A DNA stretch of 60,804 bases, taken from a virus. Lineage: Duplodnaviria > Caudoviricetes. Below, piece after piece: positions 854 to 24,916 of the stretch; positions within the stretch are counted from its first letter, which is position 1; each line of letters opens with the position of its first letter. The position numbers and the translations under genes were made by a program. Under the pieces are notes generated by a model, which was not told the DNA's origin, did no database searches, and was given only the letters and a program-made list of their open reading frames with translations. Where the stretch lies: the IMG/VR virus record IMGVR_UViG_3300048592_000232, positions 1-60,804 of that record. One strand, given 5' to 3'.

Positions 854-857
854 TCCC

Positions 858-2635: not shown

Positions 2636-2723
2636 GTGACGCCTTGACGGTACGGCGTATATGCGCTATGCTGGTATGCGTAAGAGCCGATAAATCCATG
2701 TTTTGCTGATAGGGGAGATTGCA

Positions 2724-3032: not shown

Positions 3033-3036
3033 CGTG

Positions 3037-4494: not shown

Positions 4495-4511
4495 GGTGTT
4501 CTCTCTCCAAA

Positions 4512-4538
4512 CAAAAAAGCGGCGACCTTTCAGCCGCC
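4512..4538 (-). terminator. Intrinsic terminator between repressor and integrase
   Basis: Minus strand ggcggc-tgaaag-gtcgcc-gc followed by TTTTTT. Confidence 0.55.
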
Positions 4539-4563
4539 ACTTACATGATTTTGGTTCGTGTGT

Positions 4564-5010
4564 TCAGGCCAGCGTGAATGTTCTGAGAAACGAGATAAGC
4601 GTTTTGCGTCTGTCGGATGGCGTTGATTGCACCAGTGCGCACAGTTCCTCGATTTCCGCCGCCGACTCTGGGCTATCCAAGTGTACGATCAGGACATCTT
4701 CGTCCCGCCTTGCGGGTAGCATCGGGTCTTCAGTCAACAGAACGAGAAAATCAGTCGTGGTTTTCAGCACGATGGCGAGTGCCTTGAGAAGCTGCCCGCT
4801 TGGATAGGTGTCCCCTCGTTCCAGTTCTGAGATGTAGGATTGCCCAACCTTTACGCCTCCTTCCAGGTCAAGCATTGAGGTCAGTTGTTCTTGCGTCATG
4901 CCCATATTGCGACGCAAGAAAAGAATCCGTTTACCGGGGGTGTCCAGTAACGTGTTTTCGTGTCGGTCTTTGCCCTTTCGCACCTTGCCTCCTTTGCGCT
5001 GATACTCCAT
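4564..5010 (-). CDS. XRE/HTH immunity repressor (CI-like)
   Basis: GKRILFLRRNMGMTQEQL...QSYISELERG...LKALAIVLKTTTDFL; upstream of integrase and divergent from early genes. Confidence 0.88.
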   Translation of the reverse strand: MEYQRKGGKVRKGKDRHENTLLDTPGKRILFLRRNMGMTQEQLTSMLDLEGGVKVGQSYISELERGDTYPSGQLLKALAIVLKTTTDFLVLLTEDPMLPARRDEDVLIVHLDSPESAAEIEELCALVQSTPSDRRKTLISFLRTFTLA

Positions 5011-5142
5011 TATCCATCATACCACGCCGATTTTGTTCGTATCGCCAACGCTGATAAATCTCGGAAAAATGATTGACATTTTGCTTGCTTGCTGGTAGGA
5101 TCATCACCAGCAACGATAAATTCATTCGGGAGAGGATAGATA

Positions 5143-5361
5143 ATGGCAAGACCACAGATACGCAACGAATTTGCGGCGGAAGTGCGCAAAGGCATTTACA
5201 TCATGCCGGAAACGCGCGACCGCCTGAACGATGTCAAGAAGCGTTTGGCGCAGAGCGCAGGCGCTGCACTGTCGCAGGACGACGTAATTGAACTGGGTCT
5301 GGCGCTGATCGACCACGTTGGCACCGACAGCGCCGTTTTGCTGTTGGAAGGGAGAAAGTAG
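5143..5361 (+). CDS. Cro-position small DNA-binding protein
   Basis: Divergent from repressor; TTGACA-17-TAGGAT promoter at 5073-5101; RHH-like pattern. Confidence 0.55.
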   Translation: MARPQIRNEFAAEVRKGIYIMPETRDRLNDVKKRLAQSAGAALSQDDVIELGLALIDHVGTDSAVLLLEGRK

Positions 5362-5505
5362 CATGGAGATCGTCATCAAGCACCCATTGGCGCCGCCTAT
5401 CGTTGTCCGGTTTACCGCTCGACCAGAACGTCTTGCCTCAAATCTCATTACCGACGCCTTAAAGACTGCTGAAGCTGCAAGAATATCACCTAAACCGATA
5501 ATATC

Positions 5506-5769
5506 ATGACAGAACTGATAGCCTTCGTCGCGGGTATCATCTGGGGTGTTATCTGGGTGTCATTTTTGTACGGCACCAAACGCGGTCGGTGGGTGCGCAT
5601 GTATCGCACCTGGATCACGGTCGTTGTCGGTGTGGGTGTCACCCTGCTGATCCAGGGCGTCGTCTTCGGCGTGGACGTGGCCGTCAGCGCGCTGATCGTC
5701 TTTGCCGGGTCAGGCACGCCGATCATCCTGGCAAGCCTGTACGACGAATACAAGCGAGACACCGAATAA
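5506..5769 (+). CDS. Small multi-pass membrane protein
   Basis: Three hydrophobic segments in 87 aa. Confidence 0.6.
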   Translation: MTELIAFVAGIIWGVIWVSFLYGTKRGRWVRMYRTWITVVVGVGVTLLIQGVVFGVDVAVSALIVFAGSGTPIILASLYDEYKRDTE

Positions 5770-6047
5770 TGGCGACGCCGACACGCCTTGCCAACAAAAC
5801 GATAGCCTCACTGGAGGCAGCGTTTGCACGGCTGGACAAGGCGAGTGCGGACATGTCCGTCCTGAATGAGTACCTGGAAACGGAAATGTCCGAGGCAAGG
5901 TTAAACATGGATCGGCGCCGACAGGCACGCGCCGGCGAGGCCGCGGCAGCGGTTGCACGTATCACGACAAACCTCTGGGTCATCGAGCGAATCCTCAATG
6001 ATGCCCGCTTGGGCAGATTCGACGACTTGCGCTACCCTGAGCAATAA
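5769..6047 (+). CDS. Hypothetical helical protein
   Basis: ATG overlapping the upstream stop (TAATG). Confidence 0.55.
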   Translation: MATPTRLANKTIASLEAAFARLDKASADMSVLNEYLETEMSEARLNMDRRRQARAGEAAAAVARITTNLWVIERILNDARLGRFDDLRYPEQ

Positions 6048-6125
6048 TTATCACTCTCAGCAATAATAAATGCTTGACATTTACCAGCACAAGTGATAAT
6101 CTGTTCTCTGCAAGGAGACAGAGAA

Positions 6126-8993
6126 ATGGTCACACTACGTGAATATCAAAAAGAGGCACGTGATGCCGTGTGTACGGCATGGGCGGAAGGGACGCACAGC
6201 GTCATTGTCGTGCTTCCCACGGGAATGGGCAAATGCTTGGGATGGCAGGAAGACGTATTTCTAGGGAACGGCAGTATCGTTCCTGCATACACACTTGTCG
6301 GCAAGACGGTTGACGTTATCGGAGTGACGGATACTGAGACGATGCAAAAGGTTTCAGTATCTGCAACGTTCACGGATAACGGAATCCGGGATGTGTATCG
6401 AGTCACGTTTGATAATGGTACTTCGATCATACGGACGGCAGAACACCCGTTGTGGACTGCGCGTATGAAAAAATACCACGTAAACGCGCAGACGGGGAAG
6501 GATTGCACGGTTCCGATTGACGCGGGTTGGGTGCAGACAAAAGATATTCTGCCCACCGGGAATCGTCGGGCGTATTACGATATGGGACACGTTGTTTTGT
6601 CCCCTGTCGGACTTCCCATGAAGGGATACGAAGTAGACCCAGATATTGTATTTCTGGCTGCGTTATTCTTTGCTGAAGGCGCGTTGTCAAATGGCGATGC
6701 AAGATTCTCTACTTCTGACCCCGAAACACTAGAACGCGCCCGCGTCATTGCAGCACGATATGGATGCAGGGTGCAACATATCGCAAACTACGATTATGCC
6801 CTGAGACTAGAAAACGGCACGCGTAATCCTATTACAAAGATTCTGAAGGAATGGGGCATGTGGGGGAAGCGCGCCGAACAAAAAACAATCCCCTCAGAGA
6901 TTATGCAAGGGGACGATCAAACAATCGCCCTGTTTTTGCGTCACCTTTGGGACATGGACGGATGGTATTCGTTCCAGCGGGACACCGCCAAAGCTCCGCA
7001 GATTGGTATAGCACTCGCCACAAAAGAGGGGGTTGAACAAGTCTCAAAACTCGCCCATCGCCTGGGAATCGTCGGTGGTCGAATCCGCTATCAAAAAAAT
7101 GAGAAACGCGGTGCATATCGATGGGTATCGAGCGAAGTAGAAAAATGGCAACAGATTATCGGCGCGAACGTCAAAGCGCAAAATCTTGCGGATTGCGTAA
7201 CGCATAATCAGGCACGAATCGAGGGGCGAAAATCTGAATGGCTTGCATGGCGCACGGCGCGCACGGATGGCAAGTTTGCAGATTGCCCGGAAGGGTATCG
7301 ATGGCTGAAAGTCGTTTCGGTCGAAGCGTTGCCCCCTCAGTCCACCGTGTCTATCGAGGTACATAACGACAATCATGCCTTCCTGGGATACGCGGTCGAG
7401 CATAACACGCATCTGCTGCTTTCTGTATTGGCGGCAGAGCGGGACGGCGGACAGTTAGGTCGAGCAATCATCCTGGCGCATCGCAAGGAGTTGATTGACC
7501 AGCCTGCCAGACGCATCGAAGAATTCTTCCTGGGACAATTGCCCATCCCCGGCATTGTCATGGGTGGGCGCAACGATGCCGGTGCGGAAGTCATCTGCGC
7601 GACCGTGCAGACGCTGTCCAGAGAGCGCCGTTTACGGGAAGTGCTGAGACATGGCCCCGTCACGCACCTTATCATTGATGAGGCGCACCATGCCGCCGCG
7701 AGCGGCTACGTCGAAGTCATCGAGCACTTGCGCAGCGTCAATCCCCATCTGCGCATCTTGGGCGTCACTGCGACCCCGAACCGATCCGACGCAGCGGCTT
7801 TGACCGTCTTCGACAAGCAGGTCTATAAGAAGACGATCAAGGATGCCATCCACAACTACAAAGTGCTGGTGCCTTTCGTCGCGATGGGAATCAAACTCCC
7901 GGTTGACATCAGCCGGGTCAAAATCCAACAGGGCGACTACAGCGCGGGCGAGCTTGGCAGCGTCATGGACGTTGCCAACGCCAATGACATCATTGTCGAG
8001 ACGTGGAAGAAGCACGCCAGCGACCGCCTGACGATGGCATTCACAGCCACCGTAGCACACGCCAAGCACCTGGCCGAGGCATTCCAGGATCACGGCGTCC
8101 GGGCGGAATGGGCGTCAGCAGACACGGCGAAAGAAGACCGAGACGCCATGCTGAAACGCTTCGAGCGTGGCGAAACCCGTGTTATTGTCAACTGCGCTTT
8201 ATTCACGGAGGGGTTAGATGTCCCCAACATCTCCTGTGTCCTCATGGCACGCCCGACGCAGAGCAATACCGTCTACACTCAGGCGGTCGGGCGTGGACTA
8301 CGGACGTTTCCCGGCAAAGAGAACTGCCTGATCCTTGACTTCGTGCCGACCAGCAACAAGAGCCTGTTGACCGGCAATGCGTTGCTGGAAGGCAAGCCGC
8401 TGGAACAGAGAAAGGCCGAAGACGCTGCGATGAAGCAGGGAACCATCCTGGAAGTCATCGGGATGGACATTCAGGGGAACGGCATTGACGCCGATCCGGA
8501 CACGGTTGTCATGCAAGCGTTGAACCTGCTAGGCAGTGCGCCGCTCGCATGGACATTCGACGGCAAGTTAGCGACGGCGGGTGGCGGGCAGAATTTGACG
8601 CTTGTCATTGTGTCGCCGCAGGAAGACAGAGTTGCAAAGGCGCAGCAACTCAAGGCGGCGGGGCAATGGAAGCCGGAATGGGACGCCAGCTTCGAGCGCA
8701 TCTCTGCCTACTCCGTCTACGCCGTCAACGGCAGCGTGTCGCACATCGGCAGTGTTGCGGAGTGGAGCGGCGCGGTGGAAGTGGCGCAGGACTACGTCGA
8801 GGAATACGGCGATCCCATGCTTGCCCGCAAATCGAAAAGTTGGCGCGGCGACGCGGCGACAGCAGGACAGCGCGGCATGATGAAGCGTCTCGGCGTCCCC
8901 TACAAGCCCGGCATGAGCAAAGGCGAGGCCTCACAAGCCATCGCTCACAAAATGGCCGAAATTGAACTCAAGAAAGTGGGCATACTGGCATGA
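6126..8993 (+). CDS. SF2 DEAD/DEAH-box (Res/III-like) helicase interrupted by an intein
   Basis: LREYQ, PTGMGK/T, IIDEAHH, GVTATP, TEGLDVP, QAVGRGLR; promoter TTGACA at 6074. Confidence 0.92.
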   Translation: MVTLREYQKEARDAVCTAWAEGTHSVIVVLPTGMGKCLGWQEDVFLGNGSIVPAYTLVGKTVDVIGVTDTETMQKVSVSATFTDNGIRDVYRVTFDNGTSIIRTAEHPLWTARMKKYHVNAQTGKDCTVPIDAGWVQTKDILPTGNRRAYYDMGHVVLSPVGLPMKGYEVDPDIVFLAALFFAEGALSNGDARFSTSDPETLERARVIAARYGCRVQHIANYDYALRLENGTRNPITKILKEWGMWGKRAEQKTIPSEIMQGDDQTIALFLRHLWDMDGWYSFQRDTAKAPQIGIALATKEGVEQVSKLAHRLGIVGGRIRYQKNEKRGAYRWVSSEVEKWQQIIGANVKAQNLADCVTHNQARIEGRKSEWLAWRTARTDGKFADCPEGYRWLKVVSVEALPPQSTVSIEVHNDNHAFLGYAVEHNTHLLLSVLAAERDGGQLGRAIILAHRKELIDQPARRIEEFFLGQLPIPGIVMGGRNDAGAEVICATVQTLSRERRLREVLRHGPVTHLIIDEAHHAAASGYVEVIEHLRSVNPHLRILGVTATPNRSDAAALTVFDKQVYKKTIKDAIHNYKVLVPFVAMGIKLPVDISRVKIQQGDYSAGELGSVMDVANANDIIVETWKKHASDRLTMAFTATVAHAKHLAEAFQDHGVRAEWASADTAKEDRDAMLKRFERGETRVIVNCALFTEGLDVPNISCVLMARPTQSNTVYTQAVGRGLRTFPGKENCLILDFVPTSNKSLLTGNALLEGKPLEQRKAEDAAMKQGTILEVIGMDIQGNGIDADPDTVVMQALNLLGSAPLAWTFDGKLATAGGGQNLTLVIVSPQEDRVAKAQQLKAAGQWKPEWDASFERISAYSVYAVNGSVSHIGSVAEWSGAVEVAQDYVEEYGDPMLARKSKSWRGDAATAGQRGMMKRLGVPYKPGMSKGEASQAIAHKMAEIELKKVGILA
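6234..7406 (+). mobile_element. Intein (391 aa) with LAGLIDADG-type homing endonuclease, inserted in Walker A
   Basis: GK|CL start, TAEHPLW block B, LFFAEG and LWDMDG endonuclease motifs, HN|T end; lower GC than flanks. Confidence 0.92.
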
Positions 8994-10171
8994 GTGATTT
9001 TGACGTAGAGGCTGCGCTTGATAGTGCGGCGCTGGCGGTGGATGCAGAGATTAAAAAGGCTGACGCGGGCGTATTGGGCAAAGCCTGGCAGGTGCGCAGT
9101 TTTCGGGATGCGTTCCAGCCTCGACCGCCGCTGCTCTACGTCGTGGACGGCCTGCTGGCCGCACCGTCGCTCAACATCTTCTATGGCGCACCCGGCAGCA
9201 TGAAATCGATGGTGCTGGCAGACCTGGCCGTCTGCGTTGCGCTGGGTGTGCCCTTCCTGCATTCCATCGAGGGGCAGCTTGGCAAGCCCGGCAGGACGTT
9301 CCGCACAGTGCGCAGTCCGGTGCTTTGGGTGGATATGGACAATGGGAAGCGACGCACCGACGTGCGCTTTGACGCCCTGGGCAGGGCGCACGGTGCGACC
9401 GTGGACGATGCGCAGTTGCAGTACATCTCGATGCCGTCACCGCACTTCAATGCCAGCAACGGCGAATTTATGAGCTACCTGGAAACGTTCATCCGGGCAA
9501 ACGAGCACCGGTTAGTTGTCATAGACAACTTGGGTCTCAGCATCGGTGACGCCGACGAAAACAAAGCGGAGATGGCGACAGTCATGCGCAACTTCAAGTA
9601 CGTTGCCGAAAACACGGCAACGTGCATCGTCATCATCCATCACCCGCGCAAAGGCGGCGCGGCGGAAGGCGTTCGGTTGGGCGACACCATGCGCGGACAC
9701 AGCACCATCGAGGCGAGCCTTGACGCCGCCTTCTACGTGGATCGGCTGGAAGGCAAGGACGCAATCAGTGTGGTTCCGGTCAAGGTGCGCGAGTACCGCA
9801 TTGACCCGTTTGGCGCCCTTTTCGCCTACGAGCATCGGGAAGGAACCTATGACTTGCAGACCGCGCGCTTTTTCAGCCAGTCGGTTGACTCGCCTGACGA
9901 AATGCGCAGAACGTTGGTACAGGACGCAATCCTGACTGTCGTCTTGCACTCCGGTACGGAAGGCATAGAACGCGGCGAGCTTTACGACGCCGTGCAGGGC
10001 AAAATGGAGGGACCACTCAAGATGAAATCGCCGGGTCGAAATGCCATCCGGGGACAACTGACCGTTTTGTGTGAAACCGGCATGATTGACGAGGTCAAAG
10101 AAGGACGCCGGTACATCTACATCCTAACTGAGAGCGGCTGGCCGGAAGCGCAGCGCCGCAAAGTTGGCTAG
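8990..10171 (+). CDS. RecA-family AAA_25 (RepA-like) replicative helicase with C-terminal winged helix
   Basis: YVVDGLL, GAPGSMKS Walker A, LVVIDNL Walker B, IIHHPRK, MRGHS. Confidence 0.85.
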   Translation: MSDFDVEAALDSAALAVDAEIKKADAGVLGKAWQVRSFRDAFQPRPPLLYVVDGLLAAPSLNIFYGAPGSMKSMVLADLAVCVALGVPFLHSIEGQLGKPGRTFRTVRSPVLWVDMDNGKRRTDVRFDALGRAHGATVDDAQLQYISMPSPHFNASNGEFMSYLETFIRANEHRLVVIDNLGLSIGDADENKAEMATVMRNFKYVAENTATCIVIIHHPRKGGAAEGVRLGDTMRGHSTIEASLDAAFYVDRLEGKDAISVVPVKVREYRIDPFGALFAYEHREGTYDLQTARFFSQSVDSPDEMRRTLVQDAILTVVLHSGTEGIERGELYDAVQGKMEGPLKMKSPGRNAIRGQLTVLCETGMIDEVKEGRRYIYILTESGWPEAQRRKVG

Positions 10172-12382: not shown

Positions 12383-12712
12383 ATGGCGAGGCAAAGCCCA
12401 TCGACGTGGAAGCGGCTAGAGCGCGAGACTGCCAAGCAGATCGGCGGCGTGCGCAACGGCAACCGGGGCGCAGCAACGGCAGACGCAGAGAATGACGTGC
12501 TTGCCGTCGAGTGCAAGTCCTGGGCGACGCTACCGGCCAAAGTGGAAGCCGCATTGCTTCAGGCGGAAAGCGCGGCACGAAATGCCGATGGGCTTCTGCC
12601 GGTCGCCCGCATTCACCGCAAAGGGCAGAAGGGCGACAACGACCTGGCTGTCGTGCGGTGGCACGTCATGCTGAAACTGTTGACCGATGCAGGATTTATC
12701 AAAGGAGAGTGA
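12383..12712 (+). CDS. PD-(D/E)XK nuclease, Holliday-junction resolvase-like
   Basis: KRLERE...AD...AVECKS...QAE...PVARIHR. Confidence 0.75.
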   Translation: MARQSPSTWKRLERETAKQIGGVRNGNRGAATADAENDVLAVECKSWATLPAKVEAALLQAESAARNADGLLPVARIHRKGQKGDNDLAVVRWHVMLKLLTDAGFIKGE

Positions 12713-13670: not shown

Positions 13671-13758
13671 AGACTGGCGATTCAACCATGATGTCTGGCA
13701 GTGGGTCTTCATCGCTGTCTTTCTCCTTTGGCTGGTGCTCATGGAGGTGGCTCGATGA
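13660..13758 (+). CDS. 32-aa single-TM micropeptide
   Basis: GTG start after GGAAGG; ...WQWVFIAVFLLWLVLMEVAR; stop overlaps the next ATG. Confidence 0.45.
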   Translation: MTNRDWRFNHDVWQWVFIAVFLLWLVLMEVAR

Positions 13759-14183
13759 ATGGCGCCTTACCAGCGCAGGAATGCCCGCACTGCAAACAGA
13801 TGATTCCCAGTAACGGAATCACCAACCACATACGCCGCTGTGTCTACGAACCGGAGCGCCGTGAACGTCTGCGCAACCTGGTGCCCGTGAATGCCAACAC
13901 AGCAGAATATAACCGTCTTCTCGCAGCAATGCCGGGCGAGTTGGTTGGACTTTCAACCATCGAGAAATGGTTCGGCACTTTCAGCGCGTTCATGCGCTGG
14001 CTGCACGGCGACCAGTACGTCACGAAGGAAGATGAGCTACTCGACAGTATCGACCGTGACCTGCTGGCAGGCGCTGGCGCGCTGCGCAACGAGCGCACCT
14101 ATCGTGGCGTGCCTGTCTTCGAGAAGCCGCGCCGAGAATGGACGGCAAACGGCAAAACTTATGTCGCATGGGGAGTGCGCTAA
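13755..14183 (+). CDS. Zinc-finger-containing hypothetical protein
   Basis: CPHC...H...C; FGTFSAF resembles homing-endonuclease-associated repeat. Confidence 0.6.
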   Translation: MNGALPAQECPHCKQMIPSNGITNHIRRCVYEPERRERLRNLVPVNANTAEYNRLLAAMPGELVGLSTIEKWFGTFSAFMRWLHGDQYVTKEDELLDSIDRDLLAGAGALRNERTYRGVPVFEKPRREWTANGKTYVAWGVR

Positions 14184-14197
14184 CTGAAAGGGGAACA

Positions 14198-14938
14198 ATG
14201 AAGACGCCAGACATCGAGACACTGAAACGCTGGAAAGATTCAACCAACTGGGCGGGCGTGCTGCTGTTTGCGGCGCTGCTCGCCCAAGCACCCCACGCCG
14301 CCTGGGTTTTCCTGCGCGTCGCTCCCCATGACGCCGGGTGGGAGATTGCCATTGCGCTTGTGGGCGCGGTCGTCTACGCCATCGCGCTGGAAGGGGCGAC
14401 AGCCTATTTCGTCTGGCAGGACGCCCGCCGCATTGCAGCCGCCTTTGCAGTGTTCAGCTTCCTGCACAACGTCGCCTACTACATGCCGGAACTGTGGGGC
14501 TTCGAGTTGTGGGGTGCAACGCTGACGGCAAGATTCATTCTCAGTATGCTTCTCATCTCCGCATCGTTGCCGATTGCAATCGCGGCGTTTTCGCACGTGC
14601 AGGCAGAGCGCCGCAACGTGCAAGAGACTGCGAAGCCGGTGCGAGAGACTGCGAAACCCGTGCAAGAGACTGCGAAACCTGTGCAAGAGACTGCGAAACC
14701 TGTGCAAGAGATTGCAGAGCCTGCAAAGCCGACACCGCAACTGCGAAGGGCGGCAATCGTTGCACACCTGTCCAACGGCTGGAACGGTGCAAAGCCAGCC
14801 GCCGAGATCGTAGACGCCATTGTTGAAGAGTTTGCAACGAACCCATCCACCGTCTACCGCGATTTGCAGAGCTTGCAGGATGCGAAGACGGTGCACAAGG
14901 ACGCAAACGGCGTCATCCACTTGAAAGGAATCGCATGA
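14198..14938 (+). CDS. Four-TM membrane protein with repeat linker and C-terminal HTH (DUF2637/Spd-like architecture)
   Basis: Hydrophobic N-half; about 5 VQETAKP repeats; IVEEFATNPSTVYRDLQSL helix-turn-helix. Confidence 0.7.
   Translation: MKTPDIETLKRWKDSTNWAGVLLFAALLAQAPHAAWVFLRVAPHDAGWEIAIALVGAVVYAIALEGATAYFVWQDARRIAAAFAVFSFLHNVAYYMPELWGFELWGATLTARFILSMLLISASLPIAIAAFSHVQAERRNVQETAKPVRETAKPVQETAKPVQETAKPVQEIAEPAKPTPQLRRAAIVAHLSNGWNGAKPAAEIVDAIVEEFATNPSTVYRDLQSLQDAKTVHKDANGVIHLKGIA
14618..14728 (+). repeat. 21-bp tandem repeat, about 5 copies
   Basis: gtgcaagagactgcgaaacct units encoding VQETAKP. Confidence 0.9.
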
Positions 14939-15453
14939 ATGAGATCATGACCCTGGCGCTGGCTGAGTCTGACTTTCGCCAGAACTGGGCGACGGAGTCT
15001 TTCCGTTCCGTCTACCGGCGTGGCTTTCACGACATTGGCAGCCTGCCAGTCAACAGCAAGGACAGTTATCTTGCAACGCAGTTCGTGCGGCTGGTCGAGG
15101 AATACTTCGAGTGGCAGCGTTCGCAAGGCGACGAAGCCTTGCAGGAACTCGCAGACATTTGCATTGTCGCTGCAAACATGGCGGCGCTGGTAGGCGTGGA
15201 CGTTGCAGACGATTTGCACGCAAGCACTTCGCAAGTCTCCGTGCAAACCGCGATGGAAGGTGTCGCACGTGCAATGCGAAGCGTCCGCAACGATGCAGGC
15301 GTGCAAATACAGGATGCACTGCGAACGCTGGTGCAAAGTTGTGGACAGGAAGCCCGCTTTGCAATTCGCATGGACTGCGACTTTGCAGGTGTCATTCTTG
15401 CGAAGCTCGACGCCGACGAACAGCGCGGTCGTTTGCATGGCGGTGCGAAATGA
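14935..15453 (+). CDS. MazG-like NTP pyrophosphohydrolase
   Basis: RLVEEYFE...QELADICIV motif. Confidence 0.65.
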   Translation: MNEIMTLALAESDFRQNWATESFRSVYRRGFHDIGSLPVNSKDSYLATQFVRLVEEYFEWQRSQGDEALQELADICIVAANMAALVGVDVADDLHASTSQVSVQTAMEGVARAMRSVRNDAGVQIQDALRTLVQSCGQEARFAIRMDCDFAGVILAKLDADEQRGRLHGGAK

Positions 15454-15935
15454 TTCTCAACCTAAGCAAGGAAGAAGCGTTTGCAATTGCATCCGGTGCA
15501 TTGCAGCGCCTCGAACGTCCATGCAAACCGCAACCATCCTTCTATCGAATCGAGAACGTTGGCGACTTCTGGGTCTGGTCGCCAACGGAAGGCAGAGTCT
15601 TTTTCGCACAGGCAAACGCAAACGCTTTTGCACTGCCGGAACTGACGCAGCGCGCGCCGTTTGCGCCGGGCGACGTGGTGATGCTGCGCGAGCCGTGGAA
15701 GCATCTACGCACGGAGCCGAACGGCGATCTGCTTGTCCAGTACGTGGACGGCGTAACGACGAAGTGCACGCCGGTTGGCGGCAAGTGGACGGTGCGTCAT
15801 CCGTATGGATGGAATTCCAGTTTGAACATGATGACGTGGCTGAGCCGCATGAGTGCGCAGATCACCCAGGTATACCTGGAGCGCAAAGGCAGCCTGTCAC
15901 CCTGGCAATGGATTTATGATTTTGTGTTGGTGTGA
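15450..15935 (+). CDS. ASCH/PUA-like phage protein
   Basis: PFAPGDVVMLREPW...WNSSLNM..WLSR...ITQV..ER. Confidence 0.6.
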   Translation: MILNLSKEEAFAIASGALQRLERPCKPQPSFYRIENVGDFWVWSPTEGRVFFAQANANAFALPELTQRAPFAPGDVVMLREPWKHLRTEPNGDLLVQYVDGVTTKCTPVGGKWTVRHPYGWNSSLNMMTWLSRMSAQITQVYLERKGSLSPWQWIYDFVLV

Positions 15936-15958
15936 AGCAAACGTCACTCACATACACA

Positions 15959-16044
15959 CCGTTCGGTCAGGCGTTCGGTCTGGCCGTTCGGTCGTTCGGT
16001 ACCTCTGGTAGCCCTCCCCCCGTTCGCACCGTTCGGCGTTCGGT
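15959..16044 (+). repeat. Cluster of 7 CGTTCG(G) direct repeats
   Basis: CGTTCGGT x4, then CGTTCGC, CGTTCGGC, CGTTCGGT in the intergenic space. Confidence 0.85.
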
Positions 16045-16071
16045 TTTGTACTGATATTCATGCGCTTCAAG

Positions 16072-16119
16072 TATTGACATTTGATTAAATGCCGTGTACA
16101 ATAGGAGACGTAAGAGCGA
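16072..16119 (+). promoter_or_regulatory. Strong promoter, twin of 49592-49639
   Basis: TTGACA-17-TACAAT followed by GTAAGAGCGA; 42/48 nt identical to its twin. Confidence 0.85.
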
Positions 16120-16149
16120 GTTAGAATATCAGCAGGGGAGATAATCAGC

Positions 16150-16332
16150 ATGGTAGAAATCTTCACAGGCCGCACACGGGGCAAGCAGGCCGCACGCTTC
16201 ATCGAAAAGATTGAAGCGGCTGGCGGCGAGGTCTACGAGACGTGTGACGATCAGGAAATCGAGACCGGGGTGCGCTTCCTCGAAGTGCACTACGAAATGC
16301 CAGCAGAGACCGAAGAAGAAGATGAGGAATAG
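16150..16332 (+). CDS. Small acidic protein
   Basis: First gene after the strong promoter; ends ETEEEDEE. Confidence 0.65.
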   Translation: MVEIFTGRTRGKQAARFIEKIEAAGGEVYETCDDQEIETGVRFLEVHYEMPAETEEEDEE

Positions 16333-16924: not shown

Positions 16925-17809
16925 ATGGAGAACACAAAGATCGAGTGGGCGCATCACACGTTTAACCCGTGGATTGGATGCGCAAAGGTGTCGGATGGTT
17001 GCCGGTTCTGCTACGCCGAAGCATTCGCCAGGCGCTACAACAAGGCCGAATGGGGACCAGCCGCGCAGCGCATACGCACCAGCGACGCCTACTGGCGCAA
17101 ACCGTTGTCGTGGAATCGGAAAGCCAAGCAAGAAGGCCGGCGCTATCGGGTGTTCTGCGCATCGCTGGCCGATGTCTTTGAGGATAAAGCCGAACTTGAT
17201 ACCTGGCGTCATGACCTCTTTCTTATAATTGAGCAGACACAGTCGCTTGATTGGCTTTTACTTACCAAACGACCAGAAAACGTGGCGACCATCATCGAGC
17301 GCCATGTTCCACAGGGAATTGCAAACTACTTCGATCTCAATCCGCACGTCTGGATCGGTGCGTCAATCGAAAACCAGGAGCAGGCAAACAAGCGTATCCC
17401 CCATCTGTTGGAAATACCTGCACGAGTACGCTTTCTAAGCATGGAACCACTGCTCGACCCAGTAGACCTAACCCCATGGGTAAACAGTTGCCCCAGTTGC
17501 GGCGCGCATCGCAAGGATAGCCTCCCAAATATCAGTTGTGGCTACTGCGAAGAACAACCACGCGTCCGTGGCCTCCAGTGGGTCATCGTCGGCGGCGAGA
17601 GTGGCGCCAAAGCCCGCCCAATGCGTGAAAGTTGGGTACGCTCCATTCTCAATCAATGCCAAGTATCGGCAACGCCATTCTTCTTCAAGCAATGGGGAGA
17701 ATGGGCGCCAACAGATCACTCTCCGACAGTAACCGACGTAATGAATCGCGTCGGAAAAACCGCAGCCGGACGCCAACTCAACGGGCGCACATGGGACGAA
17801 ACGCCATGA
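16925..17809 (+). CDS. DUF5131 / phage Gp37-Gp68 family protein
   Basis: TKIEW..TFNPWIGCAKVSDGCRFCYA; VFCASLADVF; LLLTKRPE; FLSMEPLL; WVIVGGESG; FFFKQWG. Confidence 0.9.
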   Translation: MENTKIEWAHHTFNPWIGCAKVSDGCRFCYAEAFARRYNKAEWGPAAQRIRTSDAYWRKPLSWNRKAKQEGRRYRVFCASLADVFEDKAELDTWRHDLFLIIEQTQSLDWLLLTKRPENVATIIERHVPQGIANYFDLNPHVWIGASIENQEQANKRIPHLLEIPARVRFLSMEPLLDPVDLTPWVNSCPSCGAHRKDSLPNISCGYCEEQPRVRGLQWVIVGGESGAKARPMRESWVRSILNQCQVSATPFFFKQWGEWAPTDHSPTVTDVMNRVGKTAAGRQLNGRTWDETP

Positions 17810-18183
17810 CCACCATCACCGACTACTCGCAGAAAGAGCTGCCGCAGAACATCCGCGACATGCTCGACGGCAAGCACGATGGCCGAGCGCTGGACGGCAA
17901 GAGCCTGGCGCAGGATGTGCGCGACCTGGGCGCAGCCAAAGAGCGCGTTAAGGCGCTGCTGTACATCGAAGGGCACGTAACCGGCGCTGACCTGTACACC
18001 CTGGCCGCCGATGAAATCGAGAGCCTGCGTGCGCAGGTGGAAGACCACATCGCCAATGCCCTGGTTAGGGCAAATCGGCAGGCGATCATCGTCGAGGCGC
18101 TGCGGCATATCCGGGAATTCAGCTTGTATCAACATGACCGAGAGGTTGCCACGCAGGTGCTGAGAGAGATTGGGGAGCAGTGA
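17806..18183 (+). CDS. Hypothetical protein
   Basis: ATGA coupling; AADEIESLR motif common in phage early genes. Confidence 0.6.
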   Translation: MTTITDYSQKELPQNIRDMLDGKHDGRALDGKSLAQDVRDLGAAKERVKALLYIEGHVTGADLYTLAADEIESLRAQVEDHIANALVRANRQAIIVEALRHIREFSLYQHDREVATQVLREIGEQ

Positions 18184-18328
18184 ACCATGACTAACGGCAT
18201 GGGATTTAAGACACTCATCTGGACGCACGTCGAACGCCCGTGCCGCTGCACGCCAGAGCACCGGCCATTCTGCCACCGCTGCGGAGGCACGGGCATCTAC
18301 AAAAGCGCACGACTACGGAGGATTGACC

Positions 18329-18571
18329 ATGTACATCAGCAGGAGACCGACGCCACGCACGGCGCACCTGACGCCGCAACCGATCACCAAGCAGCAGGTG
18401 CTTGACGCCGCTGCGCACTGGCGCAGGATCGCCAACGAGCAGGACGCCATCGCCGACAGCGAGACAGCGCAGGGTTTGCCGCGCGGCGACGTGTCCAGTT
18501 ACCGGGCACGTGCCACACTATGGCATCAAGTGGCGGATGACTTGAAAGCGCAAGCGGAGGTGATGGCATGA
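18329..18571 (+). CDS. Hypothetical protein
   Basis: RBS GGAGG; coupled to the next gene. Confidence 0.55.
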   Translation: MYISRRPTPRTAHLTPQPITKQQVLDAAAHWRRIANEQDAIADSETAQGLPRGDVSSYRARATLWHQVADDLKAQAEVMA

Positions 18572-18984
18572 ACACGACCATAACTGTCAACATTGCCGAC
18601 CTCGAAAAGGTCAAGGTCAATCTTGCCCACTATCGAAAACAAATCGAGCAAGCGGCAGAGCGTGAAAACACTTTGATGCGGCTCCTTGAGCGCGCAAACG
18701 CCGAACGGCAGCAACTCAAGGCGGAGATTGCTGCACTGAAGCGCCAACGGATTGCCGACCGCGACGCCATTGCGGAGTATCTGCGCAGGGCAATGTCGGA
18801 TTTCCTCCAGAACACGATCAAGTTTCAGTTGCGCGAGACGCCGGATAGCTACGTTGTCGAAAAGGAGATCGTCAACGCGTGGTGGAAAGCCGCCAATACG
18901 AACTACGAAGACCTGGACGAAGACGATAAGTCCCTGTACATCTGCGACGCTGACGCAATCGTATCGATAGTGAGAGTGAACTGA
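18568..18984 (+). CDS. Hypothetical coiled-coil protein
   Basis: RBS GGAGG; ATGA coupling. Confidence 0.6.
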   Translation: MNTTITVNIADLEKVKVNLAHYRKQIEQAAERENTLMRLLERANAERQQLKAEIAALKRQRIADRDAIAEYLRRAMSDFLQNTIKFQLRETPDSYVVEKEIVNAWWKAANTNYEDLDEDDKSLYICDADAIVSIVRVN

Positions 18985-18988
18985 CACC

Positions 18989-19174
18989 ATGAATACACCA
19001 ACCTATGTCCCGTGGCTTGTCCTGGCAGGCTATGCAATCGCCACAACATCGCTGGTGCATCTCACCATCAAGATAGGCGCTGATGCTGCGCTGGCATGGC
19101 TGGCAGTTGCTGCAATCAGCGTTGCCGTTCGACTTGGCGAGCGGCATTTGAGAAGGACAGAAAGGATACAGTAG
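18989..19174 (+). CDS. Small two-TM membrane protein
   Basis: Two hydrophobic segments. Confidence 0.5.
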   Translation: MNTPTYVPWLVLAGYAIATTSLVHLTIKIGADAALAWLAVAAISVAVRLGERHLRRTERIQ

Positions 19175-19428
19175 TGAGCAACGACACACGTGAAGCGGTT
19201 GCCAGCGTGCAACACGACATCTGGGCGCACTGGATGAAATATCTGTTTTCAGTTTGTTACGTGAATCATGACGGAACGGTGACGATCCCAGCGGACAAAG
19301 CAATTCGCTGGAAACGGCAAATGAATACTGAATACGCCAAGTTAAGCGATGAGGAACAGGAGAGCGACCGCAATCAAGCCGATAAAGTTATCGGAGTGCT
19401 GCAACAAATTGAGCAGGTGAAACCATGA
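19174..19428 (+). CDS. Conserved-type small phage protein
   Basis: HDIWAHW..Y...RWKRQMNTEYAKLSDEEQESDR motif. Confidence 0.6.
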   Translation: MSNDTREAVASVQHDIWAHWMKYLFSVCYVNHDGTVTIPADKAIRWKRQMNTEYAKLSDEEQESDRNQADKVIGVLQQIEQVKP

Positions 19429-19924
19429 ACACCACGATGCGAGCGTGGGTAGTTCGTTGCGAAGGCGAGAGTTGCGTTGTCGTTGCCCGAACTCCAAATC
19501 GGGCAAAACAAATCACACAGCGTTCTGCAAAGGACGCCGGACTCGATGCGCAGTGGACGACTATCACCGTGCGCCGGGCAAAGCAGTTTGACTGTCTCGC
19601 TTTACACCGGGAGATCGGCCCCATCACGCCAAAAGTAGCGGAAACGATGGCGGCGCTATGACTGCCCGCTACGCCATCCAGCTTGCCGACTTCATGGTGT
19701 TGCGCCAGCGTGAACCGGCGCTCGGCATCGTGCTGGCCGCCAACGTCGAGCGTCAGCCGATCACCATCGGCAAGGAGCGCTTTGACGACGAAGCCGTAAC
19801 GTTTGCGTGCCCGGCAGAACAGGCTGAAGCGCTGGTGCAAATCGTGCGCACCAAATACCGCCGCGACGAAGTGCGCATCTGGCGCAACGACACGGGAGCC
19901 AAGAGCGCATGGAGGCGGGTGTAG
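19425..19924 (+). CDS. Two coupled small hypothetical genes (19425-19661, 19658-19924)
   Basis: ATGA overlaps. Confidence 0.5.
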
Positions 19925-20053
19925 TGCTGCAACGAATCGGGCGAATCCGCCACAAAAGATGGCGTGCTATGCCACATTTTGTGGCATCTGCAGGTGTAGT
20001 GCTGCAACGAACTGCGACGCGTGCGTGGAACAGATGAAGGAGGAAAGGAAACA

Positions 20054-21388
20054 ATGGCTAAAAAATCATATTTGACTGTCACTGATCAGTTTTGCGGTGC
20101 GGGCGGTTCCAGTATCGGAGCCACCGCAACCGGTGTTGAATTGCGGGTGGCGCTCAATCACTGGCAACTTGCCATCGAGACACACAACAGCAATTTTCCA
20201 AACGCGCTACATGATTGCACCGACATCTCGGCCTGCGATCCGCGCCGCTACCCATCGACGGACATCCTGATTACCAGCCCGGAATGTACCAATCATAGCT
20301 TGGCGAAGGGAAAGCGCAGGCACAGCCAACCCGATCTATTCGGCGCGAACGTGCCCGACCCGGCAGAGGAACGCAGTCGAGCGACCATGTGGGACGTGCC
20401 CCGCTTTGCGGAGTATCATCGCTACAATGCCATCATCGTCGAGAACGTAGTCGATGCGAAACACTGGGTCACATGGGACGCCTGGCTGCACGCCATGCAG
20501 TTGCTTGGCTACGAGCACCAGATCGTCTTTTTTAACAGCATGTTCGCATGGCCGACGCCGCAGTCGAGAGATCGCATGTACGTGGTCTTCTGGCGCAAGG
20601 GCAATGCACGACCTGACCTCGACTTCCACCCGGCTGCGCACTGCGAGAGGTGCGGCAAGACTGTCGAGAGCGTCCAGTCCTGGAAGCGCCACGGGCAACG
20701 GTGGGGCCGCTACGGTGCGCAATACGTCTACCGCTGTCCCACCTGCGCCGCCGAGGTCAAGCCGTTCTACAACCCCGCTGCTAGCGCCATCGACTGGACG
20801 CTGCCCGCCCCGCGCATCGGAGACCGCAATAAGCCGCTTAAAGGGAAGACGGTTGATAGAATCCAAAAGGGGTTGGACAAATACGGAAGGCGAGAATTGA
20901 TCGTCGATACATCATTTGGCGACGGAGATCGCGCGTCGTTGGTGTCCGAACCACTGCGAACACAGACGACGCGTCAGACGATGGCGCTTATCATGCCCTA
21001 TTACAGCACCGGCGTCGCCAGGCCAACCAGCGAGCCAATTCCGACCGTAACAACGACCGACCGGCACGCGCTTGTAGTGGCGCCTCCGTTCATCCTCGGC
21101 TACTATACGCGCGTATCTGGCGTTCGGGCTGCAATCAGCGGAGTCAATGAGCCTATGCCGACGCAGAGCACGCAGCCGCGTCATTACTTGGTACAGCCGG
21201 GCGGCGTGCCATCTGTCGAGGATTGCGGCTTTAGAATGCTGCGTCCGCACGAGATTCACAACGCGATGGCGTTCCCCTCCGATTATAAAGTCCTCGGCAA
21301 CAATCGCGAACAAGTGCGGCAACTGGGTAACGCAGTCACGCCGCCAGTGATGAAACTGCTCGTTGAGCGTGTGGTGAGGGCACTATGA
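20054..21388 (+). CDS. DNA cytosine-5 methyltransferase (orphan)
   Basis: DQFCGAGG motif I, SPEC motif IV, VENV motif VI, PQSRDR motif VIII, QLGNAV motif X. Confidence 0.93.
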   Translation: MAKKSYLTVTDQFCGAGGSSIGATATGVELRVALNHWQLAIETHNSNFPNALHDCTDISACDPRRYPSTDILITSPECTNHSLAKGKRRHSQPDLFGANVPDPAEERSRATMWDVPRFAEYHRYNAIIVENVVDAKHWVTWDAWLHAMQLLGYEHQIVFFNSMFAWPTPQSRDRMYVVFWRKGNARPDLDFHPAAHCERCGKTVESVQSWKRHGQRWGRYGAQYVYRCPTCAAEVKPFYNPAASAIDWTLPAPRIGDRNKPLKGKTVDRIQKGLDKYGRRELIVDTSFGDGDRASLVSEPLRTQTTRQTMALIMPYYSTGVARPTSEPIPTVTTTDRHALVVAPPFILGYYTRVSGVRAAISGVNEPMPTQSTQPRHYLVQPGGVPSVEDCGFRMLRPHEIHNAMAFPSDYKVLGNNREQVRQLGNAVTPPVMKLLVERVVRAL

Positions 21389-22539
21389 GAAACCAAACGT
21401 CATTCTTTGAGGACATGCGCCTGACACTCGAAGACGCCATCGGCCTAAGCGTCGCCAGCCTGAACGAATACGGGCAACGGTATCGACACTGGGCGATTGC
21501 CTACAGCGGCGGCAAGGACAGCACGGCAACAGTTGCGTTTGTGGCGTGGGCGATTCGCACCGGGCTGGTGCCTGCTCCGGCGTCGCTGACCGTGCTCTAT
21601 GCAGACACGCGCATGGAGCTACCGCCGTTGCAGCAAAGCGCCATGCAGTTGCTGTCAGCATTGTCGGCGCAAGGAATCAGCACGCAGGTCGTGTTGCCGA
21701 AGATGGCGGACAGATTTTTCGTTTACATGCTTGGTCGTGGCGTTCCACCACCAAGCAACACGTTCAGATGGTGCACACCGCAACTCAAGATCGAGCCGAT
21801 GCACGCAGCATTAGCCGACTTACGCCAGCGGCACGGCGAAAAGCTGTTGATGTTGACTGGCGTCAGAATGGGTGAATCGGCGGCGCGTGACCAGCGAATT
21901 GCATTGTCATGCTCAAAAGATTCCGGAGAATGCGGGCAAGGATGGTTTCAGGTCGCCACGCCTGACAGCATGGCAGACACGCTTGCACCGCTTCTGCACT
22001 GGCGATTGTGTCACGTGTACGACTGGCTCTATTTCGATGATCGGCACGGCTATGACGCTTCTGGAATCGCAGCAATCTATGGCGAGGATGATGTGCGAAC
22101 TGGGTGCGTTGGATGCAATCTTGCCAGCCGTGACAACGCGCTAGAACGCCTGCTGCGCCGGCCTGAGTGGTCGCACCTGGCGCCGCTGTTGGAATTGCGC
22201 CCGCTTTACGCTGAACTGAAGCTCGCAAAAAACCGCAAACGCAAAGCCGAACCGGAACTGCGCAAGGACGGCACATTTGCAACGAACGTACAGCGTCTCG
22301 GCCCGCTGACAATGGATGCGCGTCGCTATGGACTTGACCGAGTGTTGGACATTCAGCGGCGCGCCGGCGTTGACCTGATCAATGATGAAGAGATCGCTCG
22401 CATCTTGGAATTGATCGCCGCCGACACCTGGCCGAACAAATGGAGTGGTGACGACATCGCTGGCGACAAGATGCTTGACGCAGTGAGCGTCACAACATTG
22501 GGCGATCTTGTGACGCAACCAATCCTGGTGCACCTATGA
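21385..22539 (+). CDS. Phosphoadenosine phosphosulfate reductase family (DndC-like PP-loop) protein
   Basis: AYSGGKDS, RWCTPQLKIEP, GVRMGESAARD, RTGCVGC. Confidence 0.88.
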   Translation: MRNQTSFFEDMRLTLEDAIGLSVASLNEYGQRYRHWAIAYSGGKDSTATVAFVAWAIRTGLVPAPASLTVLYADTRMELPPLQQSAMQLLSALSAQGISTQVVLPKMADRFFVYMLGRGVPPPSNTFRWCTPQLKIEPMHAALADLRQRHGEKLLMLTGVRMGESAARDQRIALSCSKDSGECGQGWFQVATPDSMADTLAPLLHWRLCHVYDWLYFDDRHGYDASGIAAIYGEDDVRTGCVGCNLASRDNALERLLRRPEWSHLAPLLELRPLYAELKLAKNRKRKAEPELRKDGTFATNVQRLGPLTMDARRYGLDRVLDIQRRAGVDLINDEEIARILELIAADTWPNKWSGDDIAGDKMLDAVSVTTLGDLVTQPILVHL

Positions 22540-24129: not shown

Positions 24130-24255
24130 ATTGACAGCATAGCACGTCGCCCGCCCACTGTCAATGCACGGCGGATAAGTACCCTGGCGCACCCCTCCGC
24201 AAACTTCACATAAAACCGACTTTTTGCGCAGAGCTTACCAAGAGTTCACGGCTAT

Positions 24256-24480
24256 TTTTAGCACAGTTTGTGCACAATTGGTCTACAATTGGTCGTAGTA
24301 TTAAGAGCTTTACGAAAATCGCCTTTTTACTCTGGGCGGATTGTCATAAAATTGAGTTAGCGAGCAATTAGTGGACAATTAGTCGTAGTCTAGAGCATAG
24401 TTTTAGCACAGTTTGTGAAAAGTATACCGACTTTTTCGTAGACATAACGCAAAAATCTTCACGCAAACCATACGCAAACC
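24256..24480. repeat. 11-bp-period array containing the second copy (24311-24383) of the 73-bp block
   Basis: 64/73 identical to 2521-2593; ttttagcacagtttgtg at 24256 and 24401; acgcaaa repeats. Confidence 0.8.
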
Positions 24481-24564
24481 TTGCAGGATGTATGTGCTAA
24501 TCGGCGCAACTTGATAGTTACGTCAATTTCTGTAAGTGCCTCCCAGGAAATTTGTAGGTTTCAT

Positions 24565-24686
24565 GGCGACAGTCCGCCAGGGGTCACTTGTCCCAGGATA
24601 TATCCCCCTACGTGTATATATATCTAAAAGATATATACACTAGGGGGGATATCCTTTGGGACGGTGACACCCTGAGCGCTGTCGCC
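24565..24686. repeat. Long imperfect inverted repeat (hairpin B), core inverted relative to hairpin A
   Basis: ggcgacag...gtcac.tgtcccaggatatatccccctacgtgtatatatatct AAA agatatatacactaggggggatatcctttgggacggtgac...ctgtcgcc. Confidence 0.85.
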
Positions 24687-24916
24687 CGGCCTACCAGAAA
24701 ACAAAATCGGCCGCCGACACGCAAAACGCCTTAGACGGGCTGCAAGGCGTCGGAAGTTGCGCTCATGGTAGATTGTACCTTTTTCGTATTTCCGTTGAAC
24801 ATGACCCCCGCCACGACCGAAAACGGCCTATCCGCTGCATATTCGCTGGAAGGATATTTTTATATCAGCCGAAACCGCTAAAAATCATGCAGGCTGATAT
24901 GGTTGCCTGACAGGTA

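Follow-up and report, generated by a model that had tools for sequence, protein, structure and literature searches.

Streptomyces plasmids use the TraB-clt-SpdB2 system for double-stranded DNA conjugation and intramycelial spreading, and SpdB2 is described as a separate, oligomeric membrane protein that has four predicted transmembrane (TM) helices and binds DNA; SpdB2 homologues on actinophages are noted in the same work (PMC4447253). Here we describe a locus that resembles parts of this system in a tailed phage genome of 60,804 bp (IMG/VR virus record IMGVR_UViG_3300048592_000232); the whole of this stretch was analysed and is called the window. A dense field of the tetranucleotide TGCA lies over coding DNA in the window and begins within the gene of memHTH, a protein with predicted membrane helices and a C-terminal helix-turn-helix (HTH) domain. 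In the plasmid system TraB is a membrane-anchored FtsK-like ATPase with a C-terminal DNA-recognition domain, and the phage encodes an FtsK/TcpA-like ATPase with a C-terminal three-helix domain. The clt locus acts in cis and is made up of short words repeated within or beside coding DNA, as is the TGCA array, and SpdB2 is a multi-TM DNA-binding membrane protein, a description that memHTH would fit with its 3–4 predicted TM helices and predicted DNA binding. There are also differences. In the plasmids clt is a short locus near traB, made of direct 8-bp repeats that the cognate TraB recognises, whereas the array described here is built from a 4-bp palindrome and extends over 1.2–1.5 kb and three genes. 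The field of the window is far from its FtsK-like gene, although arrays in three related records (L118, L121 and L122) lie in or upstream of that gene. Unlike the TraB system, the locus belongs to a complete tailed temperate phage with terminase and portal. When the N-domains of 26 memHTH family members were compared with Pfam at E ≤ 1, there was no family, and no match to SpdB2/DUF2637, among the matches listed. In the ESM-Atlas a DUF2637 cluster appeared for memHTH at rank 21 with a score of 0.82, too low to be more than a lead.

SpdA2 of plasmid pIJ101 has a palindromic target, sps, inside its own coding sequence and affects segregational stability (PMC4170104). The TGCA field likewise lies within the gene of a putative DNA-binding protein. 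The sps site is a 12-bp palindrome in 2–3 copies and SpdA2 is soluble, whereas in the window the 4-bp sites number in the dozens, the putative binder is a membrane protein, and the field continues into downstream genes. ToxR is a membrane-integral winged-helix protein described as tethering DNA to the membrane via multiple degenerate sites (PMC10629549). ToxR has an N-terminal winged helix, one TM helix, a periplasmic sensor and promoter targets. memHTH has the opposite topology and a conserved, polytopic TM domain, and its sites would be within genes. A protein named Gbn is described as reading GATC (PMC9239103).

A literature search (full text, supplements apart) produced no relevant report of phage TGCA arrays or of phage tethers formed by a membrane-anchored HTH. 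The early phi29 protein p16.7, which is anchored in the membrane through its N-terminus and binds DNA with its C-terminal domain, brings the DNA of the phage to the membrane. It is encoded among the replication functions, has one TM helix and binds DNA without sequence preference, and we know of no dedicated cis array for it. memHTH resembles p16.7 in its N-terminal anchor, C-terminal DNA-binding domain and early gene neighbourhood, a likeness of design only, and differs from it in having a conserved polytopic domain in place of a single TM helix. In the Noc-NBS, RacA-ram and SeqA-GATC systems short sites occur in clusters to which a multivalent binder is recruited, and the binder connects the DNA with the envelope. 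The GATC cluster of oriC consists of a palindromic 4-mer at a local density similar to that of the TGCA field, and its reading depends on Dam methylation. All three systems serve host chromosomes and have soluble or peripheral readers, and to our knowledge none of their site sets is written over a kilobase of coding sequence by the reader's gene. TGCA is also a palindromic 4-mer, clustered at 6.2 times its background, and like a partition site it forms a repeated array, with 39 putative sites in 1.2 kb that are conserved in relatives. The initial annotation of this DNA had proposed a centromere-like zone. The conserved array and its tie to a membrane-HTH gene stand. Classical partition genes were not found: PF13614 (AAA_31) and PF02195 (ParB_N) gave 0 hits in the 60.8-kb genome while positive controls matched, and no partition gene was found among 40 of 63 open reading frames (ORFs) scanned against PHROGs and/or Pfam (ParM and TubZ were not searched separately). 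Since there is neither an AAA_31-type ParA nor a ParB_N protein, the field is not a classical centromere.

The field and the genes that it overlaps are laid out as follows.

14198–14938, + strand: memHTH, 246 amino acids; hydrophobic N-domain, disordered repeat linker and C-terminal winged helix
14434–14895: TGCA lobe 1, 18 TGCA plus TGCG variants, within the 3' two-thirds of the memHTH gene
14618–14715, + strand: 21-bp tandem repeat, 4.7 copies of the unit GTGCAAGAGACTGCGAAACCT, detected with Tandem Repeats Finder (TRF)
14935–15453, + strand: second gene, 172 amino acids; matches phrog_9236 (pyrophosphatase) at E 0.0034, no Pfam match; hosts lobe 2
15072–15525: TGCA lobe 2, 20 TGCA, in the second gene and continuing ~75 nt into the third
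15450–15935, + strand: third gene, 161 amino acids; matches phrog_874 (unknown function) at E 3.6e-6, no Pfam match

Exactly 39 TGCA occur in 14430–15640 (32 per kb), which agrees with the approximate count in the initial annotation. Base composition predicts 4.4 sites (3.66 per kb) and the rest of the window 6.1 (5.0 per kb), and dinucleotide-preserving shuffles of the field contained 12.2 ± 3.0 TGCA with a maximum of 23 in 1000. The two lobes are separated by 176 bp without a site, and a single outlying TGCA is at 15629. Other words of the field are enriched as well, including the previously noted variants TGCGAA (10 vs 0.41 expected) and GCAAA (10 vs 2.2). Relative to expectation from the rest of the window there are 20 TTGCA vs 1.85, 18 TGCAA vs 1.60, 13 GTGCA vs 1.20, and 12 TGCGA vs 1.47. 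Among strand-symmetrised 4-mers CGCA/TGCG reaches 1.5 times background and all other one-letter variants of TGCA are at 0.3–0.9 times. A position matrix around the sites holds almost no information beyond the core, with a weak T before it and a weak A after it. The field is not AT-rich and has no consensus of iteron length.

The 21-bp repeat is built from the motif, as had been proposed, each unit having a single TGCA and a single TGCGA at alternating distances of 10 and 11 bp, and it encodes the VQETAKP repeats of the memHTH linker. It is the source of 6 of the 39 sites; when it is removed, 33 TGCA are left in 1090 bp. A spacing of 8–13 bp had been called frequent, a description that does not hold for the field at large. 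Such gaps make up 9 of 38 TGCA gaps and 21 of 51 TGC[AG] gaps, mostly within the repeat, and outside it no helical periodicity of the sites was found. Near-identical sequence is present in contigs of public runs labelled aquatic or sludge metagenome (24 runs, all assembled contigs, with no RNA data set among those listed). The copy number of the repeat varies in nature, with one unit fewer in contigs of two of these runs, and the memHTH of the cluster representative P0001 is 7 residues shorter than the protein of the window.

The sites occupy two reading-frame positions, xxT-GCA and xTG-CAx, and the Cys-coding frame is rare. Codons were permuted synonymously inside each gene, 2000 times each. 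The memHTH gene has 18 TGCA where permutation gives 8.9 ± 2.0 (maximum 16), and the second gene 15 where it gives 5.7 ± 1.7 (maximum 11). For the third gene alone enrichment is not clear, with 7 TGCA vs 5.4 ± 1.3 (maximum 10) after permutation and vs 3.0 ± 1.2 after resampling of codons, and the field is confined to its first ~75 nt. The field had been reported to run through three genes, which is correct for the memHTH gene and the second gene and not for the body of the third. Synonymous resampling of all three genes from the codon usage of the window gave 14.3 ± 2.75 TGCA vs 40 observed (z 9.3, maximum 24 of 1000). The memHTH and second genes are the two most deviant of the 63 ORFs of a crude gene list by codon resampling. 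The field is a feature of the DNA that the encoded proteins do not explain; the enrichment persists under the codon-preserving shuffle proposed as a check in the initial annotation. The resampling expectation of 14.3 itself exceeds that of average sequence; the amino acid sequences lean towards TGCA too. The sites are placed through the choice of both codons and residues.

Alignment-based scans identified 1 viral and 37 metagenome loci that encode memHTH relatives, most of them contigs of 1–4 kb. For each locus the field region was taken to start 150 nt inside the tblastn match and to extend 700 nt beyond the end of the gene, which left 30 rows with at least 450 nt of field region, including the window and many near-duplicates. 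TGCA is at least 3.9 times its expectation (range 3.9–9.5) in 22 of the 30, and the control palindromes ACGT, TCGA, GTAC and CATG are near 1 in the same loci. By N-domain lineage, about nine are of the TGCA type and three are not, and the TGCA lineages extend to relatives with 34–36% protein identity (L083, L117, L118, L119 and L120). Codon resampling revealed a TGCA excess in 11 of 14 gene segments of the relatives (z 4.1–10.2), the segments without it being the memHTH gene and the second half of the FtsK-like gene of L118 and the FtsK-like gene of L125, of which the latter two were expected controls. Among 32 unrelated control loci, each 8 kb or longer, there was none in which TGCA formed the top local 4-mer cluster. 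Loci with a DUF5131 neighbour were tried as relatives and rejected, as 0 of 80 had a comparable field (maximum 16 TGCA per kb-window vs 33 for the window's own); they serve as controls only.

The individual sites are conserved less than their density. In a codon-aware alignment with L084–L095 (55–64% nucleotide identity), 4–8 of the 18 memHTH sites are at an identical aligned position, and in the same syntenic group (55–59% nucleotide identity) 5–7 of the 15 sites of the second gene are, where chance predicts ~9–17% for four fully conserved bases. Many sites are lineage-specific, and TGCA and TGCG replace each other at identical aligned positions; density is therefore kept by turnover. The second gene has syntenic homologues in L086–L095. 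In L095 the memHTH homologue (2586–3401) is spread over two frames, with matches at 2586–2987 and 3056–3271, by a frameshift or an assembly error, and the contig has two N at ~4702.

Other loci have a different word in the same place. Compared with the resampling expectation there are 22 CGCAA/TTGCG vs 5.5 ± 2.0 in L106 (z 8.2), 14 vs 4.0 in L116 (z 5.5) and 11 vs 5.6 in L096 (z 2.6), while TGCA is not enriched in these loci (2 vs 2.5, 0 vs 1.6 and 5 vs 2.6, respectively). The CGCAA-type field sits at the same position as the TGCA fields, and in all three loci both orientations of the word are about equally enriched relative to expectation. Enrichment of both orientations of an asymmetric word points to duplex DNA rather than mRNA. 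L101 and L103 have a marginal GCGC excess and L097 and L102 weak signals alone.

An aggregate profile was made from 18 TGCA-type loci anchored on the conserved AQAPH motif of memHTH. The near-identical L084, L091, L093 and L111, L114, which is without the anchor, and loci with a TGCA ratio below 3.9 were left out; the short L094 (348 nt, ratio 6.4) was kept. TGCA density is 5–10 per kb upstream of the anchor, rises from +100, stands at 29–43 per kb from +300 to +700, at 12–15 from +700 to +1000 and at 17–26 from +1000 to +1500, and returns to baseline from +1600. The field always starts inside or after memHTH and extends ~1.5 kb downstream, whichever gene is there. In L118 the next gene encodes a membrane-anchored FtsK/HerA-like ATPase, and the field (~4890–5600) occupies its 5' half. 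A homologue of this ATPase in L125 has 81% identity to it over 539 residues; in the 21 kb of L125 examined, no memHTH was detected. The first half of the ATPase gene has 22 TGCA in L118 and 6 in L125, and the L125 gene has no excess over resampling (7 vs 6.5). Of the evidence for a positional cis feature, as opposed to a property of the overlapped gene, this contrast is the cleanest.

memHTH has three strongly hydrophobic helices and one that is moderately so (3–4 membrane helices predicted), in line with the 4-TM/HTH protein of the initial annotation. In the AlphaFold model the C-terminal winged helix has a predicted local distance difference test (pLDDT) score of 94–97. This domain has a weak match to HTH_DeoR in Pfam (E 0.012; best member 0.00089). 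A fold search retrieved generic winged-helix DNA-binding domains alone (best E 0.04) and no match for the membrane domain. With its hydrophobic N-domain, disordered linker and confidently modelled winged helix, memHTH has the build of an anchor. There are 90 homologues at E ≤ 1e-3, nearly all metagenomic; the source of one distant family member names an Anaerolineae metagenome-assembled genome. A scan of GTDB species representatives with memHTH and FtsK-like alignments gave no match, and a single-protein scan of viral contigs with memHTH gave one weak, partial match (L002). No match was found in viral contigs with the second gene as a single-protein or alignment query. The names MazG-like and ASCH-like had been given to the second and third genes. 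The former comes down to the one weak PHROG match at E 0.0034, and the latter has no Pfam support at E ≤ 0.01.

The N-domain of memHTH is well conserved, with the invariant polar residues Q30, H33, R40, E65, N91 and S132 and the nearly invariant H133, and the linker is hypervariable. The C-terminal HTH is of at least four kinds: A, a DeoR-like winged helix; B; C, which resembles HTH_23/sigma-70 region 4; and D. Loci of class A (the window, L084–L095 and L118) and class C (L083, L110–L112, L114, L117, L119 and L120) have TGCA fields, those of class D are without one, and in class B the CGCAA word is found in L096, L106 and L116.

Two other phage proteins are relevant to the array.

56430–58076, − strand: FtsK/TcpA/TraB-like ATPase; Pfam FtsK_SpoIIIE (E 2e-7), DUF87 and TrwB_AAD_bind
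58821–59510, − strand: multi-zinc-ribbon protein with tandem double-zinc-ribbon repeats, CxNCG...GLCxxCYxYxRxxGxxRP

The ATPase, a candidate partner in the memHTH system, consists of N-terminal hydrophobic segments, a core of the FtsK_SpoIIIE/HerA/TrwB type, a disordered linker and a C-terminal three-helix domain. The best folds for its model, which is of moderate quality (mean pLDDT 60.9), are TcpA (E 1.6e-8), EccC/EssC ATPases and the FtsK motor on DNA (1.3e-7). It is 36% identical to the field-carrying gene of L118 (E 1e-48). Both a 'terminase large subunit' PHROG and an FtsK/SpoIIIE-like PHROG match it; it is not the terminase, and the likely terL is a separate gene at 54422–55864. The NCBIfam plasmid_TraB match is far under the cut-off (18.6 vs 800 bits). 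The gene is placed between a 175-amino-acid ORF and the likely small and large terminase genes. A complex prediction for memHTH and the FtsK-like protein scored 0.00 without controls, which is evidence neither way.

The ATPases of the window, L118, L121, L122 and L125 have in common a conserved C-terminal three-helix domain and the conserved C-terminal motif RGY[IV]S..F.E. L121 and L122 are syntenic with the window over 52983–60804 plus 1–10171, have an ATPase 60% identical to that of the window, and are closer relatives of the phage. They carry 16 and 13 TGCA per 300 bp in an intergenic array just upstream of the ATPase operon, with words such as ATTTGCAT and ATTTGCAA. Homologues of the zinc-ribbon protein, which may be a DNA binder, are encoded directly upstream of this array in both (L121 7974–8999, with 5–6 repeats), and L118 has one with a single repeat. 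Distant ATPase relatives without the conserved C-terminus (L123, L124 and L126) have no TGCA array. A perfect inverted repeat, TATCACT-GAT-AGTGATA, is found in the middle of the array (L121 9040–9060, L122 5526–5542) and is operator-like.

We regard the field as a selected cis-acting array of very short sites over coding DNA, with TGCA as the core and TGCG partly tolerated; its membrane tethering, binder and purpose are what we infer beyond that. The interpretation that we tentatively prefer, without counting it as probable, is a multivalent, membrane-linked DNA docking array that is tied to memHTH and resembles clt or a centromere. memHTH would insert into the membrane during its translation, and many copies of a low-specificity DNA-binding domain, be it memHTH's own, presumably cytoplasmic HTH or that of a partner protein, would coat the dense array next to the memHTH gene. 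The effect would be to pin the genome region that adjoins the replication genes to the membrane. The purpose might be membrane-organised replication or segregation, or hand-over to a membrane-anchored FtsK/TraB/TcpA-like DNA pump in the manner of clt. A role in the membrane handling of DNA is plausible given the membrane-anchored FtsK/TcpA-like ATPase of the phage, and the intergenic array of L121 and L122 counts in favour of docking as a non-coding instance.

Several points weigh against a docking array read by memHTH. An HTH site is seldom as short as a 4-bp palindrome, a form typical of modification enzymes, and every candidate for the binder is a putative reader whose binding is proposed here. 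The memHTH gene of L118 is not itself enriched (3 TGCA vs 2.6), and no memHTH was detected in the parts of L121 and L122 examined. memHTH and the FtsK-like gene occur together in only two records, the window and L118, a count explained by the shortness of most contigs. In the population 4 of 27 listed variant positions fall in TGCA (~13% expected), too sparse a sample to show purifying selection. TGCA fields co-occur with three different HTH classes, which weakens the overlapped HTH as the element that sets the motif. L109, of class B, has TGCA; it is in the same N-domain clade as the class C loci L110–L112 and kept a TGCA-type field despite the HTH swap, which argues that the variable HTH is not the specificity determinant. 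The initial annotation had suggested comparing homologues with different HTH helices for different motif fields. Persistence of TGCA in three classes goes against such a link and the one lineage with CGCAA goes with it, a change of motif between lineages being what co-evolution of a protein reader and its sites would predict. Lineage is a better guide to the motif than HTH class. Within class B the recognition helices differ between the two groups (RTAQxD vs RTADGD), and the tree is poorly resolved (2 of 12 inner branches well supported), so the HTH may still have a role.

If another protein reads the array, it would be a clt-like or loading site and memHTH an accessory membrane protein like SpdB2. 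The candidates are the C-terminal three-helix domain of the FtsK-like ATPase, the zinc-ribbon protein and a host factor. We consider this unlikely. In its favour, arrays in or just upstream of the ATPase gene in L118, L121 and L122 go with the conserved ATPase C-terminus and are missing from the relatives that lack it, a zinc-ribbon homologue lies directly 5' of the array in L121 and L122 and is present in L118, and the motif stays TGCA while the HTH class of memHTH changes. The sample is tiny, however, with three records vs three. The window ATPase gene has no array (0–2 TGCA per 200 bp, the field being 17 kb away round the circle), L125 has the conserved C-terminus with only a weak TGCA excess in the gene, and the contrast between L118 and L125 links the field to memHTH adjacency. 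It is improbable, in our estimate, that TGCA is instead the target of a methyltransferase or other modification enzyme and forms an epigenetic cluster that times or sequesters a nearby function, which could be the iteron and promoter region at 15960–16102. GATC clusters of oriC with SeqA and the P1 pac site are parallels. A bare 4-bp palindrome with almost no flanking information is what a modification site typically looks like, a C5-cytosine methyltransferase (PF00145) and a DndC-like protein are encoded a few kb downstream, and the end of the field adjoins a conserved CGTTCG repeat array and a TTGACA-17-TACAAT promoter. Matches of the C5-methyltransferase to solved enzymes cover the catalytic core only, and searches for the adenine methyltransferase families PF01555 and PF02086 had 0 hits each. 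In the fields TGTA/TACA, the product of deamination, is depleted (0.4 times) and not enriched, the CGCAA/TTGCG lineage word is not palindromic, and the link to memHTH would be left unexplained.

A more far-reaching possibility is a second, virion-independent mode of spread, in which the FtsK-like ATPase and memHTH would form a TraB/Spd/clt-like double-stranded DNA pump that captures the TGCA field. Phage genomes would then be moved across septa from one cell to its neighbour in a filamentous host, or held at the septum at division; Anaerolineae are filamentous. We think this quite improbable. As a replication element, the field would be an origin-proximal zone of initiator or primase sites, TGCA placing GCA on both strands, and GCA is the recognition site of some phage primases. 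The field lies at the end of a replication/recombination block (helicase, DnaB-like and RusA-like proteins; a DnaN-like gene in L118), and in L125 TGCA-containing 9-mers (GGTGCAGAT three times plus inverted copies) flank an AT-rich core by the primase gene. A better origin candidate without TGCA exists at 2300–2620, where an AT-rich palindrome and repeats lie by the primase gene, and another repeat array is at 15960–16042. With its lack of AT-richness and of an iteron-length consensus, and a span of 1.2–1.5 kb that is far larger than known origins, the field is very unlikely to be such an element. The least likely of these explanations is that the signal acts in RNA, as UGCA-rich mRNA that is bound, cleaved or structured, or is a neutral by-product of repeat expansion or mutation bias. 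Every array is located in sense sequence that is transcribed, the folding of lobe 2 is somewhat better than that of its shuffles (z −3.49), and local duplication in the 21-bp repeat supplied sites. Against this, 33 sites lie outside the repeat, the asymmetric variant is enriched in both orientations, lobe 1 folds no better than its shuffles (z −0.77), and most of the lobe 2 centroid structure is unpaired. Some folding excess is expected anyway, because shuffling destroys a self-complementary word; with no defined fold, RNA structure was rejected. A neutral by-product is ruled out by the conservation across 34–60% protein identity, in which sites turn over while their density is retained. A pac or cos role of TGCA was also rejected, as the likely terS (55851–56390) and terL genes have 0–2 TGCA per 200 bp.

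The field would be a clear case of a second code written over protein genes, in which a 4-bp word is kept at 30–45 copies per kb over a kilobase. The choice of codons and even of residues is bent to it, and turnover maintains it down to about one third protein identity. memHTH represents a new family of membrane-anchored HTH proteins, so far from metagenomes only, with ~90 members, a membrane domain without a Pfam family, and a connection to an FtsK-like membrane ATPase of tailed phages. Should the array serve to tether phage DNA at the membrane or to feed it there, two ideas of long standing, membrane-organised phage replication and conjugation-like spreading of phage DNA, become directly testable. 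For annotation, the example shows that cis elements hidden in ORFs are detectable by local word-density scans.

The window, an IMG/VR virus record that is complete and ends in direct terminal repeats, is the whole genome of a temperate tailed phage. Its genes were identified by PHROGs and/or Pfam scans of the 40 ORFs mentioned above, the crude gene list being based on GC content at third codon positions (GC3). The identified genes, other than those already listed, are:

858–2117, − strand: primase
3037–4494, − strand: large serine integrase
4564–5010, − strand: CI-like repressor
6093–8993, + strand: helicase
8990–10171: DnaB-like protein
12383–12712: RusA-like resolvase
16925–17809: DUF5131 protein
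20021–21388: C5-cytosine methyltransferase (PF00145)
21385–22539: DndC-like PAPS-reductase-family protein
52983–54425, − strand: portal
54422–55864, − strand: large terminase (likely terL)

The structural genes are also on the minus strand. A blastn search of 13700–16200 against 50,697 phage records gave no match.

Directly past the TGCA field, at 15960–16102, seven CGTTCG, six of them CGTTCGG, occur within 83 bp and are followed by a C-run and a near-consensus promoter, TTGACA (16074–16079) and TACAAT (16097–16102) separated by 17 bp. The same layout of repeats and promoter is found 3' of the third gene in L086 (nine CGAACG) and L095 (six CGAACG), with the repeats in the opposite orientation relative to the promoter. 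The repeats may be an operator or an iteron array for the next operon. Further downstream, the cluster at 16925–22539, with its DUF5131 (Gp37/Gp68) protein, C5-cytosine methyltransferase and DndC-like PAPS-reductase-family protein, suggests a DNA modification module.

Between the primase gene and the ORF at 2703, the region 2300–2620 contains an AT-rich palindrome with 28-nt arms (TCTCTCTATCCCCCTAGTGTATATATAT and its inverted copy) followed by direct repeats of the GTGGACAATTAGTGGAGGC type, and is a likely replication origin. L125 has an analogous region at 4680–4830, adjoining its primase gene, where three copies of GGTGCAGAT and inverted copies lie on the flanks of the AT-rich core. The helicase (966 amino acids) has an apparent intein at about residues 48–438. 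The insert matches an intein N-terminal splicing region and intein-containing DnaB/RecA/GyrA models, and the L121 homologue is without it, aligning contiguously to residues 1–47 and 439–965. A strongly AT-rich island at ~24200–24900, with 21 AAAA/TTTT and 12 ATAT per 600 bp and no ORF in the crude gene list, contains the top local 4-mer clusters of the whole window.

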